Below are positions 959 through 21,208 of a DNA stretch of 48,530 nucleotides, piece after piece; within the stretch, counting starts at the first letter, position 1; every line of letters starts with the position of its first letter. Origin of the DNA: Candidatus Daviesbacteria bacterium (lineage in GTDB: Bacteria > Patescibacteriota > Microgenomatia > Daviesbacterales > UBA10151); the NCBI GenBank assembly GCA_016176465.1, contig JACOXD010000009.1:1-48530 (forward strand). The letters are read 5' to 3'. The translations under genes and the position numbers were made by a program. Below the pieces are notes generated by a model that was not told the origin of the DNA, did not search any database, and saw only the letters and a list, made by a program, of their open reading frames with translations.

Positions 959-994
959 GGTGACAAATAAGAGCTATAGCAATATATTGTCACC
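959..994. repeat. 36-bp dyad site U1, upstream of PaaX/Cas2-like gene 1
   Basis: ggtgacaa..gctatagc..ttgtcacc; arms and core are centred on 976.5. Confidence 0.85.
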
Positions 995-1035
995 CTATGA
1001 AATTAGTGTTATTTTAAAGGTATGAATTTAAAGTT

Positions 1036-1590
1036 ATGAGCAAACTACTGAATCCAACCGCTAAGGAAACCCTTAAATTGATAGGTCTTGGAAGTTTGGT
1101 CATTGCTTCCTTTGCAGCTCCTGGTTTACCACTTGCCTTTAACTTTGTTTCTAAAGAATGGAAAAAGTATAAGCGAAAGGAATTGGGTAGAATAATAAAA
1201 CGTTTTACTGAACAAGAAGTAGTTAGCTTTAGAGAAGAGAACGGAAAACAAGTTATTGGGTTAACTGAAAAAGGTAGGAGTAGACTATTATCTTATGATT
1301 TTGAGAATCTCCAACTTAAATCTAAAAGAAGAGATGGATTATTTAGAGTGCTGGTTTTTGATATTCCTGAAAATAAGAAAAAGAACAGAGAATTATTTAG
1401 GCAAAAGCTAAAAGAATTAGGTTTTATCAGGATGCAAGATAGTGTGTTTGTATCTGCTTTTCCTTGTAAAGATGAAATAGATTTTATTTGTAACTATCTT
1501 GGAATCTCTCGACACGTCACATTATTTTCCATTAGAAAAATTGAAAGAGGAGAAGAATTAATTTTTAAAAAATCTCATATGAAAGCATAA
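1036..1590 (+). CDS. PaaX-like protein (wHTH plus Cas2-like ferredoxin fold), copy 1
   Basis: LTEKG wing; DGLFRVLVFDIPE, LKELGFIRMQDSVFV; paralog at 19982. Confidence 0.8.
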   Translation: MSKLLNPTAKETLKLIGLGSLVIASFAAPGLPLAFNFVSKEWKKYKRKELGRIIKRFTEQEVVSFREENGKQVIGLTEKGRSRLLSYDFENLQLKSKRRDGLFRVLVFDIPENKKKNRELFRQKLKELGFIRMQDSVFVSAFPCKDEIDFICNYLGISRHVTLFSIRKIERGEELIFKKSHMKA

Positions 1591-1627
1591 CTTGTTGGTG
1601 GATAATTTGATTATTTAATTTTTAAAG

Positions 1628-1663
1628 TGATACAAAGATAAGCTATAGCATTTTTGTGTATCA
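1628..1663. repeat. 36-bp dyad site D1, downstream of PaaX/Cas2-like gene 1
   Basis: tgataca..gctatagc..tgtatca centred on 1645.5; 23/36 identical to U1 with the same core. Confidence 0.85.
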
Positions 1664-1722
1664 TATAGAAATTAGGATGATATAATAAAAATGCCAAAAG
1701 AAAATATGGGCTTTAAAAACTG

Positions 1723-2130
1723 ATGAACTATATTCAAATAATCCTCAATGGTTTTAGCCAAGTTATGTTTCAAAAAAATGCAATGCTTGGAATTTTGATG
1801 ATTTTAGGATTACTAATTGCATCTCCCCAAACCTTCGTCTTAGCTTTACTTGGAAATATTATCACTACATTTACCGGATCTTTATTGGGGGTAGAAAGAA
1901 ATGCTTTGGATGCTGGGTTTGCAGGATATAATGGGGTTTTAATTGGAGCTGGAATATCTTTTTATATTAAAGATTTTAGTATGGCATTTCTACTTACTAT
2001 TTTAGGCTCAATTATCGTCTCTATTTTATTTTATCTACTTTTTAAAAATAATATACCACCTCTTGCAGCCCCCTTTGTTTTAATTACCTGGGGAATTTTA
2101 ATAGCCTTGAAATTTATTAAATTAAATTAA
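1723..2130 (+). CDS. Urea transporter (UT) family protein, single repeat (half size)
   Basis: GFSQVMFQ.N, G..GYNGVLIG, PPLAAPFVL motifs; hydrophobic; 135 aa. Confidence 0.75.
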   Translation: MNYIQIILNGFSQVMFQKNAMLGILMILGLLIASPQTFVLALLGNIITTFTGSLLGVERNALDAGFAGYNGVLIGAGISFYIKDFSMAFLLTILGSIIVSILFYLLFKNNIPPLAAPFVLITWGILIALKFIKLN

Positions 2131-18837: not shown

Positions 18838-19110
18838 ATGGGTTTAATGGATACATTTAAACAGCTTGGGGATCTCAAAAAGATGAGAGATCAAGCTATG
18901 GAAGTGCAAAAAAAATTATCAGGAATAAAAATAACTGTAGAGCATAGAGGGGTAACAGTTATAATGACTGCAGATCAAAAAGTTGTTTCTATTTCAGGTG
19001 AGTTAGATCATGAGAAAATTGCAGAAGCTGTTAATGAAGGATTAAAACAATCTCAAAAAGTTGCAGCTGAAGAAATGAAATCTTTAATGGGTGGCGTGCC
19101 AGGAATGTAG
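18838..19110 (+). CDS. ybaB: YbaB/EbfC nucleoid-associated protein
   Basis: QAMEVQKKL, IAEAVNEGL; lies between dnaX and recR. Confidence 0.85.
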   Translation: MGLMDTFKQLGDLKKMRDQAMEVQKKLSGIKITVEHRGVTVIMTADQKVVSISGELDHEKIAEAVNEGLKQSQKVAAEEMKSLMGGVPGM

Positions 19111-19833
19111 CTACCACTGGCAGTCTGCTGCAAAATTTACATTTCCTAATAAATTATTTAAAGTAGGAGTCCCATTGGTAAATGGTGCTGAGTAAAATCT
19201 CATTTCATAATTTGAGCCTAGTGTGCTACTAAGTTGTAAATTTCCCTGGCCTCTAATTCCTCCAACATGATCATTATATGCTCCTCCCACATCTACTGAG
19301 TTGGGATAATTACCTGACTGATAAAGGAAATAAAATGGTGAAGGATTTCCTCCTGATATGATTCCCCAAACCCCATCATCATATGCTTTAGTTTTAACAG
19401 AACCATGGAATTCAATATCAAAAGTACTTTCTCCGTGATAACAGCTAACGGTTAGGGTCACATGATCTCCGTTATAAGCATAAAAAGGTGCTGAACTTGG
19501 AGTAGGAGTGGGGGTGGGAGAAGGAGAGGGTGCAGGGGTTGAATTAGTCGAGTTATTATTTTGGCTCGTAGAAGAATTATTGTTAGCTGATGGGGAGGGA
19601 CTTGGATTAGACTTAGAAGTTGCGCTGGGTGAAGGGGAAGTTTTTAGAGATAAATTATTTGTAGGTGATGGAGAAGGTGAGGATTTTTGTTTAGTAGATG
19701 AAGTTGCTTGAAAACCTTTGTCAGGAGTTGGCTGCCCTCCATTGAGAGGTATTTTATTTAATATAAAAAACCCACTTCCCAATAGCAATAAGCATAACAA
19801 CAATTGGAGCAACACCCTTTTGATTGTTATCAA
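19111..19833 (-). CDS. Membrane-anchored Ser/Pro/Thr-rich hypothetical protein
   Basis: N-terminal hydrophobic helix, SPSP linker, beta-rich C-terminus. Confidence 0.65.
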   Translation of the reverse strand: MITIKRVLLQLLLCLLLLGSGFFILNKIPLNGGQPTPDKGFQATSSTKQKSSPSPSPTNNLSLKTSPSPSATSKSNPSPSPSANNNSSTSQNNNSTNSTPAPSPSPTPTPTPSSAPFYAYNGDHVTLTVSCYHGESTFDIEFHGSVKTKAYDDGVWGIISGGNPSPFYFLYQSGNYPNSVDVGGAYNDHVGGIRGQGNLQLSSTLGSNYEMRFYSAPFTNGTPTLNNLLGNVNFAADCQW

Positions 19834-19916: not shown

Positions 19917-19952
19917 GGTAACAAATTAATCTACGTGGTTTAAATTGTTACA
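19917..19952. repeat. 36-bp dyad site U2, upstream of PaaX/Cas2-like gene 2
   Basis: ggtaacaaattaatctacgtggtttaaattgttaca. Confidence 0.88.
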
Positions 19953-19981: not shown

Positions 19982-20563
19982 GTGACTGAGAAACAAAAAG
20001 ATATAGCTAAAAATATTATATTGGCTCTTGGGATAGTTGGAGCAGTATCTATGATAATGATAGCCCCTGGACTAGCTAAAGCGATACCCTTACTTGCAAA
20101 AATTGATGTTAGACGAATCAACCAAGAAATAAAAAGGCTAAATAAACGAGGACTTGTGGAGATTATTAAAAGAAAAAATAAGGTACCTTTAATTAAACTG
20201 ACTAAAGAAGGAGAAAAGAAATTATCAAGATACCAAATCGATAAGTTAGAAATTGAGAGGCCAAAAAAATGGGATGGAAAATGGAGACTGGTGGTGTTTG
20301 ATATCCCTATAACTAAAAACTATTCCAGAGCAGTACTTCGCAAAAAGATGAAAAATCTTGGGTTTTATAAATTACAGTCGAGTGTGTTTGTCCACCCCTT
20401 TCCATGTTTTGAAGTATTGAAATTTATAAGGGATTATTTTGGAGTTAGCAAAGAGGTGGAGTATATGGAAGTTAATAGTTTGGAAAGTCAAGACATGTTA
20501 ATATCTTACTTTTTTACGAAACAAATTAATCTACGTAGAACAAATTGTCACAATTTCAGATAA
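19982..20563 (+). CDS. PaaX-like protein (wHTH plus Cas2-like fold), copy 2
   Basis: LTKEG; WDGKWRLVVFDIP, LGFYKLQSSVFVHPFPC. Confidence 0.82.
   Translation: MTEKQKDIAKNIILALGIVGAVSMIMIAPGLAKAIPLLAKIDVRRINQEIKRLNKRGLVEIIKRKNKVPLIKLTKEGEKKLSRYQIDKLEIERPKKWDGKWRLVVFDIPITKNYSRAVLRKKMKNLGFYKLQSSVFVHPFPCFEVLKFIRDYFGVSKEVEYMEVNSLESQDMLISYFFTKQINLRRTNCHNFR
20517..20552. repeat. 36-bp dyad site D2, overlapping the 3' end of gene 2
   Basis: cgaaacaaattaatctacgtagaacaaattgtcaca; 29/36 identical to U2, direct orientation. Confidence 0.88.
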
Positions 20564-20611: not shown

Positions 20612-21208
20612 ATGGCCACTATCCCCAAAGTTGTTAGAGATTTAATAGAAAGTTTTGAAAGGTTACCGGGTATAGGGCCTAAAACTGCGCAAAGATTAAC
20701 TTACTATTTACTCCATGCTCCAAAAGAAGAAGCAAAAGCGCTAGCTGAGGCTGCAGTTGCTTTAAAAGAAAAAACTGTGATTTGTTCAATTTGTTTTAAT
20801 ATCTCTGAGAAAGATCCTTGTGAAATAGATACAGATCCAAGTAGGGATAAATCTATTATAGCAGTGGTGGAAGATCCATTAGATGTTTTGGCTTTAGAGA
20901 AAGCAAATTTTAAAGGGCTTTATCATGTATTACACGGTGCAATTTCTCCTTTAGAAAATATTGGGCCAGAAGAATTAAAAATTAGGGAGTTATTACCTAG
21001 GTTAAAAGATAGAGCAGTTAAAGAAATTATTTTAGCAACAAACCCTACAATGGAGGGTGAGGCAACTGCAATGTATATAGATAGATTAATTAGACCCTTA
21101 GGAATAAAAGTAACCAGAATTGCCAGAGGCTTACCTGTTGGGGGAGATTTAGAATATGCGGATGAAACCACTTTATCAAGAGCCCTAGAAGGTCGTAAAG
21201 AATATTAA
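20612..21208 (+). CDS. recR: Recombination mediator RecR
   Basis: [36 protein letters not shown]. Confidence 0.98.

Follow-up and report, generated by a model that had tools for sequence, protein, structure and literature searches.

The 48,530-nucleotide (nt) stretch of contig JACOXD010000009.1 from a Candidatus Daviesbacteria bacterium (assembly GCA_016176465.1), hereafter the window, contains a small gene bracketed by two dyad-symmetric sites of 36 base pairs (bp), and the question that this locus raises is what the gene product does with the two sites. Patescibacteria, also called the candidate phyla radiation (CPR), have tiny genomes and very few recognised regulators. An earlier note on this DNA read the arrangement as a single-gene cassette whose product binds, and perhaps cuts or recombines, its own flanking sites, and offered a looping autorepressor as the alternative. 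Our analysis comes closest to that alternative. We consider it probable that the locus encodes a short PaaX-type dimeric repressor that is autoregulated, has an operator on either side of its gene, and controls a small conserved regulon, looping between the two operators being a proposed feature.

Two matching dyads enclose a single gene

The upstream dyad U1 (959..994, ggtgacaaataagaGCTATAGCaatatattgtcacc) has the form GGTGACA-N7-GCTATAGC-N7-TGTCACC, and the downstream dyad D1 (1628..1663, tgatacaaagataaGCTATAGCatttttgtgtatca) has the form TGATACA-N7-GCTATAGC-N7-TGTATCA. Read directly from the sequence, both sites have GCTATAGC at their center and carry ACA at positions 5-7, 22 nt from a TGT at positions 30-32. 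The outer 7-nt arms are self-complementary within each site and differ between the sites (ggtgaca/tgtcacc in U1 and tgataca/tgtatca in D1). U1 forms 13 of 18 dyad pairs, and its center lies 59 nt 5' of the start codon, whereas the center of D1 lies 55 nt past the stop codon and 78 nt ahead of the next start codon. The two sites are identical at 23 of 36 positions, and their centers are 669 bp apart. The only open reading frame (ORF) of at least 40 amino acids (aa) that fills the interval is the one at 1036-1590 on the plus strand, with a 41-aa minus-strand ORF nested inside it, and the paired dyads around one gene, as first described, were thus confirmed from the sequence. When the window was searched for ACA-N7-GCTATAGC-N7-TGT with at most two mismatches, two matches were found against 0.08 expected, a count that was reached by 1 of 100 shuffles. 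The core GCTATAGC by itself also occurs twice, against 0.52 expected, and 12 of 100 shuffles reached this number.

The gene product is a short PaaX-like protein predicted to form a homodimer

The regulator gene (1036..1590, + strand) encodes a protein of 184 aa that is PaaX-like, although short, according to Pfam, AlphaFold2 (AF2), and Foldseek. The Cas2-like PaaX central domain that had been attributed to the product was recovered by Pfam (PaaX_M, "PaaX central Cas2-like domain," PF20803) at residues 98-171, with an E value of 1.2e-17 and 64.2 bits against a cut-off of 24. The same residues match Pfam Cas2 (PF09827, E 2.5e-6), the NCBIfam cas2 model TIGR01573 is passed with 32.2 bits against a cut-off of 24.5, and PADLOC Cas2 models match as well. 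No Pfam match to the ligand domain PaaX_C was found, the protein ending at residue 184, and the PaaX N-terminal Pfam domain gave no match at E values up to 1. Moreover, searches with Pfam, NCBIfam, and PADLOC detected no tyrosine or serine recombinase, HUH/Y1, or transposase domain, PaaX_M/Cas2 being the sole domains, and no transposase fold was present among the Foldseek matches listed (ranks 1-50).

The AF2 model, with a predicted local distance difference test (pLDDT) score of 85.6, contains helices at residues 32-43 and 47-59 followed by a β-hairpin wing at residues 63-76. From the N terminus, the protein is assigned a hydrophobic helix at about aa 9-31, a predicted winged helix at about aa 32-90, and the Cas2-fold PaaX_M domain (aa 98-171), the putative dimerization domain. 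Profile searches of the PDB returned only weak matches, namely the MarR/SlyA winged helix at E 0.03-0.06 and winged-helix or Cas2 matches at E 0.03-0.6. With Foldseek, the best PDB match was Escherichia coli PaaX (8A39; 180 columns, E 8.5e-4), and Cas2 chains came next with E values of about 1e-2. The first 30 or so residues are hydrophobic, with a Kyte–Doolittle value of 1.81 over a 19-residue window, as they are in 30 of 57 family members, and may serve either as a membrane anchor or as helix 1 of the winged helix.

When the protein was modeled as a homodimer, the interface score ipSAE was 0.48 compared with 0.01 for the best control, the contacts agreed by at least 91% across runs, and the partner pLDDT was at least 82. 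Among proteins of solved structure, 20 of 30 pairs and 1 of 23 single chains reached the mark used for this score. The predicted interface lies within the Cas2-like domain; because solved Cas2 and PaaX dimers exist, the pass may mirror likeness to them.

Family members carry their own locus-specific site pairs

The genome of the window (G000; 1.07 Mb, 93.8% complete) was compared among 31 related genomes. Family members are present in 16 of the 31 genomes, with up to 8 matches each, and in 46 of 201 Patescibacteria genomes sampled, with up to 7 matches. G000 itself has four paralogues, counting the gene at 1036-1590, to whose product the others are 28-33% identical. Three of the four are flanked by clear pairs, each with a sequence of its own, whereas only the upstream dyad is clear for the fourth. 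The paralogous cassette 2, which lies in the same window, consists of U2 (19917..19952; ACA-N22-TGT with core CTACGTGG), a gene for a 193-aa ORF that is 33% identical to the first (19982..20563, + strand), and D2 (20517..20552; core CTACGTAG). D2 falls within the 3' tail of the ORF, 77 nt ahead of recR.

To score pairing, the 250 nt 5' of each gene were compared with the sequence surrounding its stop codon, and the best 30-nt match without gaps was taken. The score was at least 22 in 22 of 30 loci from relatives, compared with a mean of 18.9 and a 99th percentile of 22 in 870 mismatched-locus controls. Likewise, 22 of 35 loci from an independent Patescibacteria collection (labeled Levy-, Curtiss-, Nomura-, Sungii-, Pacei-, and Saccharibacteria) scored at least 22, as did 3.5% of 1190 controls, and 5 of the 35 scored 30/30. 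The motif check on the flanks of homologs that the earlier note had proposed thus found dyad pairs specific to each locus. The score of U1 and D1 themselves is 21/30, the 95th percentile of controls, and support for this pair comes from the ACA/GCTATAGC/TGT motif test instead.

Across the family, both the identity between U and D and the palindromy peak at the core (positions 1-4) and at the arms (positions 11-15), with a core consensus of GC[T/G]A.T[A/C]GC and a U–D identity of 0.81-0.97 at core positions 1-4. Conserved palindromic centers shared by much of the family include GCTATAGC, GCGATCGC, and GCGGCCGC. Palindromy is seen in 86% and 83% of the sites at the central two positions and in 83-93% at the central four, and wobble-type mismatches show no strand bias (61 G-U-type vs 47 A-C-type).

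Site similarity tracks protein similarity: sites are alike at 13.5-15.4 of 36 positions below 60% protein identity and at 21.2 of 36 above it. Among orthologs at 60-73% identity, the arms are conserved, and U and D show parallel changes across their inner 22 nt. In phage immunity regions, operator sites co-evolve with the specificity of the repressor. The parallel change seen here could reflect such co-evolution with protein specificity or, equally, copying at the DNA level.

D1-type sites are dispersed in two genera and partly retained at orthologous positions

By implication, the sites had been taken to be peculiar to the cassette at 1036-1590, but D1-type sites occur at 9 further places in G000. 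The pattern TGATACA-N7-GCTATAGC-N7-TGTATCA is found exactly at eight places in this genome and at a ninth with one mismatch. When ATACA-N7-GCTATAGC-N7-TGTAT was searched with at most one mismatch, nine sites were found in G000 and 12 in a genome of the sister genus (G001). The search of 29 further relatives yielded none, and the reversed pattern, used as a control, had no match in any genome. Counting U1 and a 35-bp variant 64 nt ahead of recO, the total for G000 is 11. G000 and G001 are also the only genomes of the 31 with the thyX-adjacent ortholog. A dyad scan that is blind to sequence detected 31 dyads in G000 compared with 16, 15, and 9 in shuffled genomes, and the D1 type was the sole multi-copy family that it detected. 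In three genomes with orthologs of 56-58% identity, ACA-N7-GCTATAGC-N7-TGT was found 6, 3, and 5 times compared with 0, 0, and 1 for the control.

The neighbors of the sites in G000 include tatD, recO, pyrF/pyrD, the genes for a MOSC-like protein and an M24 peptidase, gpsA, two toxin–antitoxin-like modules, and the urea-transporter (UT)-like gene next to the regulator. Five of the 12 G001 sites are orthologous in position to G000 sites, namely the one ahead of the MOSC-like gene (117 nt away in one genome and 116 nt in the other), those flanked by the methyltransferase gene and tatD and by pyrF and pyrD, the one past murB, and D1 itself. A transcription factor that controls a small regulon would be expected to have sites dispersed and orthologously placed in this way. 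A perfect D1-type dyad with an arm run of 11 pairs lies at C2:72550-72581 (L038:2050-2081), within the Mur_ligase_M domain of a 480-aa ORF. Two other D1-type sites lie 1380 bp apart between fusA and gpsA (C1:22941-24352; L035:2941-4352) and enclose a minus-strand module of an HTH_17 protein (87 aa), a PIN protein (140 aa), and a third protein of 122 aa. A single query did not find gpsA in G001, a 95%-complete genome, so its absence there is not shown.

In G001, the ortholog of the regulator (L015, G001:C60, 560-1100) has suffered a deletion of about 300 bp that fuses the U1 core GCTATAGC via an ATG to codon 85 or so, and the remnant is a 102-aa Cas2-like ORF. A search with the N-terminal 100 residues found no other family member in this 95%-complete genome, a single query that does not establish absence. 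About 45 nt past D1, G001 also carries a 39-nt relic of the 3' end of thyX, 82% identical (..IQVKLAEIEDKYS..), and no such relic was found within 11 kb past D1 in G000.

Candidate promoters overlap the upstream site

U1 contains a complete candidate sigma-70-like promoter on the plus strand, GTGACA-17-TATATT (960-988). A second candidate, TTGTCA-17-TATTTT with TG before its second hexamer (987-1015, + strand), begins within the right arm of U1 and is present as the earlier note had stated. Across the genome, 5 of the 11 sites sit 60-78 nt 5' of a start codon. No terminator-like sites were found in a scan of 850-1800.

A subclass of the family lacks the hydrophobic helix, and in 10 of 11 of its loci the center of U is located 17-19 nt 5' of the ATG. 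Judged by eye, 7 of these 10 loci have an exact TTGACA ahead of the palindrome, and a TAnnnT-like box comes after it, while the downstream copies retain the dyad and mostly lose the TTGACA. In this subclass, U would be a candidate operator inside a promoter that looks leaderless.

Tests of excision and recombination

Excision of the gene would join positions 976 and 1645, and no such joint was detected in the contigs of four runs from one study, one of which may be the source of the genome, a weak result in that contigs only were available and rare forms would be missed. A joint skipping 61 nt (894 to 956) was seen in one 172-nt contig with a 22-nt side and three other letters, and it was assigned to another locus or organism. 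Solo sites, which an empty locus in relatives would leave behind, were not found ahead of recR in any of the 17 family-level relatives without cassette 2 (0/17). Here a core-plus-arm score that recovers both true sites was used, as a dyad threshold of at least 13/18 is too strict (the true D2 sites have 12/18). The only other family-level genome with this thyX, G004, likewise showed no solo site past it (0/1). In at least 10 of the 17 relatives without cassette 2, the 3' end of ybaB is visible within 130 nt upstream of recR. In G000, a minus-strand 240-aa ORF rich in Ser, Pro, and Thr (19111-19833) lies together with cassette 2 between ybaB (18838-19110) and recR (20612-21208). Cassette 2 interrupts the ybaB–recR pair, which is adjacent elsewhere, only in G000 and G003, which are not each other's closest relatives by RecR identity (79%, compared with 93% for G001).

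Outside U and D, direct repeats or target-site duplications were not in excess (observed mean 15.2, control 15.3, n = 36). Cas1 (PF01867) gave no match in G000, and the same search was positive in 7 of 14 named control genomes; a crude exact-20-mer scan detected no CRISPR-like array in G000. Local site pairs were also inspected for the extent of duplication. Three site pairs in G001 are duplications that reach past the site, one of which (L042) shares the terminator, the site, and the ribosome-binding site, and sharing beyond the site fits copied regulatory regions rather than site-exact events. Exact duplication of the site alone was therefore rejected as a rule for local pairs, although the G000 pair does share exactly 38 bp.

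A model of autoregulation and the alternatives to it

We propose that the winged helix reads DNA and that the Cas2-fold domain forms a symmetric homodimer. The dimer would bind double-stranded DNA of about 36 bp with dyad symmetry, the outer ACA and TGT arms being read by the two winged helices and the central GCTA.TAGC core lying under the dimer axis. Because U1 overlaps the candidate promoter of the gene itself, the protein would repress its own expression, although the sign of this regulation is conjectural, and U1 may thus be an autoregulatory operator. D1, a putative second operator, lies 78 nt ahead of the next gene and is one of at least 11 sites in the genome, which suggests that the protein would also control a small regulon. 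Among the genes that it might target are the UT-like gene, tatD, recO, pyrF/pyrD, and the MOSC-like gene. In geometry, U and D would fit a long-spaced inverted-repeat operator. From the family-wide pairs, the tracking of sites with protein, the predicted dimer of PaaX architecture, and the long-spaced inverted repeat bound by E. coli PaaX, it appears that the protein recognizes its own flanking sites, and this part of the earlier proposal stands, whereas cutting or recombination by the product is unsupported. As for the site behind the stop codon, it most likely would take part in a cooperative loop with U, act as a protein roadblock that insulates the gene from its neighbors, or both. That D serves solely as the operator of the next gene's promoter was rejected as a general rule, since the downstream neighbor is convergent in many loci, but it is plausible for D1. 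Of the 36 well-paired loci, 20 have a co-directional neighbor, as D1 does, and 4 have no neighbor.

Several observations weigh against the repressor model. The downstream neighbor is convergent in 12 of the 36 well-paired loci, so that D has no promoter to act on there, and one G000 site lies inside the Mur-ligase ORF while another is placed between convergent genes after murB. Sites within a locus are alike at a mean of 28.0 of 36 positions, compared with the 21.2 between orthologs at 60-73% protein identity, and the persistence of D between convergent genes and this concerted evolution of the pair stay unexplained by the model. The pair between fusA and gpsA is identical across exactly 38 bp and nothing beyond, an identity that binding alone does not need. 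G001 has 12 intact sites, yet the sole family member found in it lacks the first 85 or so residues and, with them, the winged helix. This deletion could be of very recent origin, or the assembly could have picked up a variant; failing that, another factor would read the sites. In addition, the protein scores only 16.6 bits with the NCBIfam PaaX model TIGR02277 against a cut-off of 264.55, and its Foldseek match to PaaX 8A39 is weak (TMq 0.36). Across 52 sequences, the FDIP motif of Cas2 type always has its Asp109, and Asp100, Arg104, Gln134, Ser136, and Glu170 are likewise invariant, so that a catalytic role is conceivable. Finally, the promoter-like matches in 850-1800 are no commoner than in shuffles (4 vs a mean of 4.1), the hexamers being consensus matches only.

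A rival explanation is recombination, with U1 and D1 being cut and rejoined in their shared GCTATAGC core by the protein itself or by a partner, so that the gene could leave as a circle and re-enter; the site pairs would then result from insertion. This is favored by the concerted evolution of the sites, the five loci with 30/30 matches, the exact 38-bp pair around the HTH_17–PIN module, the restriction of cassette 2 to two genomes that are not the closest pair, the thyX relic just past D1 in G001, and the invariant Cas2-type acidic residue. D is also mostly a direct copy of U (direct better in 23 pairs, equal in 9, worse in 4), a count of little weight because the pairs were found by direct alignment. 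We nevertheless regard this mechanism as very unlikely. The protein has no recombinase, HUH, or transposase domain, no Cas1 was found in the genome, and the searches for solo sites, for a 976-1645 joint in contigs, and for direct repeats outside the sites were all negative. Furthermore, three G001 pairs are duplications that extend past the site, sites are conserved at orthologous positions beside housekeeping genes in two genera, and the low identity of the G000 paralogues to this protein argues against recent spread. The claim of an excisable single-gene cassette, for which neither an empty locus in the relatives searched nor an excision junction in contigs was found, was therefore not borne out. 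We see a slender chance that winged-helix–Cas2-fold proteins go beyond binding and act on DNA at their 36-bp palindromes by nicking, pairing, or duplicating them. If they do, U1 and D1 and the 38-bp pair would have been made and kept alike by a repeat-duplicating or site-specific exchange, and the family would be related to the Cas2 half of the CRISPR integrase while being free-living and recognizing repeat-size palindromes alone.

Alternatively, the dyads might be read by another regulator or represent a special class of promoter, with the gene merely a member of the regulon. The retention of 12 perfect sites by G001, in which no intact family member was found, agrees with such a reader, and in many sites the left arm looks by eye like a −35 hexamer and the right spacer like a −10 hexamer. 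However, every family gene across 65 loci is accompanied by a pair particular to its locus, with site sequences that follow the protein sequence, the other three G000 paralogues carry different dyads of their own, and the type with GCTATAGC and ATACA arms was found only in the 2 of 31 genomes that have this ortholog. Since the dyad symmetry through the center also suits a symmetric dimer, we consider another reader unlikely. It is hardly likely at all, in our view, that the dyads are RNA hairpins at the mRNA ends that the Cas2-fold domain, annotated as an endoribonuclease, binds or cleaves. The compensatory changes in the arms, the passing of the NCBIfam cas2 model, and the position of D within the 3' untranslated region agree with hairpins, but the central four positions are palindromic, which a loop does not need, and G-U-type mismatches are not in excess over A-C-type ones. 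In the helix-less subclass, U lies so close to the ATG, between TTGACA and a −10-like box, that it is unlikely to be transcribed whole, and the scan that found no terminator-like sites likewise speaks against hairpins.

Comparison with known systems

According to the passages on it in a review (PMC9493321), PaaX of E. coli has TGATTC-N27-GAATCA as its binding site and acts as a repressor on its own promoter. The present system shares with PaaX, the repressor of phenylacetate catabolism in E. coli and Pseudomonas, a predicted N-terminal winged helix followed by a Cas2-like domain, the best-matching fold (8A39), and a predicted dimer, as well as a half-site with long spacing (TGATACA-N22-TGTATCA here, compared with the PaaX operator given in those passages). 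However, the 184-aa protein has about 60% of the length of the 305-residue PaaX chain and lacks the phenylacetyl-CoA-binding PaaX_C domain, while its proposed operator has an added palindromic core and a second copy behind the gene, and a hydrophobic helix is found at the N terminus of about half of the family. No paa genes adjoin the locus itself, where the neighbors are thyX and the UT-like gene. Cas2 is alike in its ferredoxin-like fold, the FDIP...R...GF..Q.SVF pattern, the TIGR01573 and PADLOC matches, and the same predicted dimer edge, whereas the family studied here has a winged-helix fusion, no Cas1 or array found in the genome, up to 8 matches per genome, and its own flanking palindromes.

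The cI gene of phage lambda lies between the operators OL and OR, which match each other and differ among heteroimmune relatives. Our locus would likewise have a regulator gene between its own operators, but with one dyad per side about 520-700 bp apart, a chromosomal setting, many paralogues, and looping that is at present a proposal. The sites of loxP, FRT, and integron cassettes are similar in length (34-36 bp), in having inverted arms around an 8-bp center, in flanking a short segment as two copies, and in their matching central regions (both GCTATAGC here). The loxP spacer is asymmetric. In our locus, the center is palindromic and conserved across much of the family, no recombinase is present in or beside the locus, the site also occurs singly at promoter-proximal positions, and no solo (empty) alleles or joints were found. 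RAYT genes are flanked by REP palindromes, which number tens to hundreds. Such REPtrons (RAYT plus REP) resemble the present family in that a single gene lies between cognate palindromes that are also dispersed in the genome and specific to the paralogue. Here, though, there is no HUH/Y1 motif or fold, each paralogue has 1-11 sites, and the palindromic center argues for recognition of duplex DNA.

Annotation and significance of the family

Homologs of the protein, about 190 of them close, are named "CRISPR-associated endonuclease Cas2," "PaaX," or "hypothetical" in public records, and the passing of the cas2 equivalog, together with a score far below the PaaX equivalog, explains the Cas2 and PaaX names. 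The "CRISPR-associated endonuclease Cas2" labels on this family in CPR genomes are probably systematic misnomers. The family is widespread, uncharacterized, and largely misnamed in Patescibacteria, and no prior description of it was found in the literature as judged from titles and abstract openings. Reading it as a short PaaX-type family would correct this systematic misannotation. If the operator can be predicted from the two flanking dyads, a simple rule is obtained for finding operators and small regulons in uncultured bacteria, and a compact pair of protein and 36-bp site is on offer with many orthogonal specificities. The presence of D between convergent genes and the concerted evolution of sites tie to the question of how the Cas2 fold came to act on palindromic repeats.

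Neighboring genes and minor features

The regulator gene has thyX and the UT-like gene as its neighbors (Pfam). The downstream gene (1723..2130, + strand), a candidate target of D1, encodes a 135-aa membrane protein that matches Pfam UT with an E value of 3.4e-31 over profile positions 1-130 of 292, the first half only, and may be a half-size transporter. Between D1 and this gene, an extended −10-like box, TGATATAAT (1678..1686, + strand), was read by eye with no −35 match. Tiny upstream ORFs precede the regulator gene (1022-1039, 5 codons) and the UT-like gene (1691-1723, 10 codons), and their stop codons overlap the main start codons as ATGA and TGATG, respectively. These overlaps suggest translational coupling but could be due to chance.

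Two of the four G000 paralogues adjoin tRNA genes upstream on the opposite strand, tRNA-Gln (L002:2175-2246) and tRNA-Leu (L004:2140-2223). The third paralogue (C13:55178-55732) has two more candidate sites of its own type, at C13:135002 and C13:95844, with 23-24 of 28 informative positions. One of them is located 39 nt ahead of a gene for a 276-aa secreted or membrane protein and is followed by a TGGTAAAT box.

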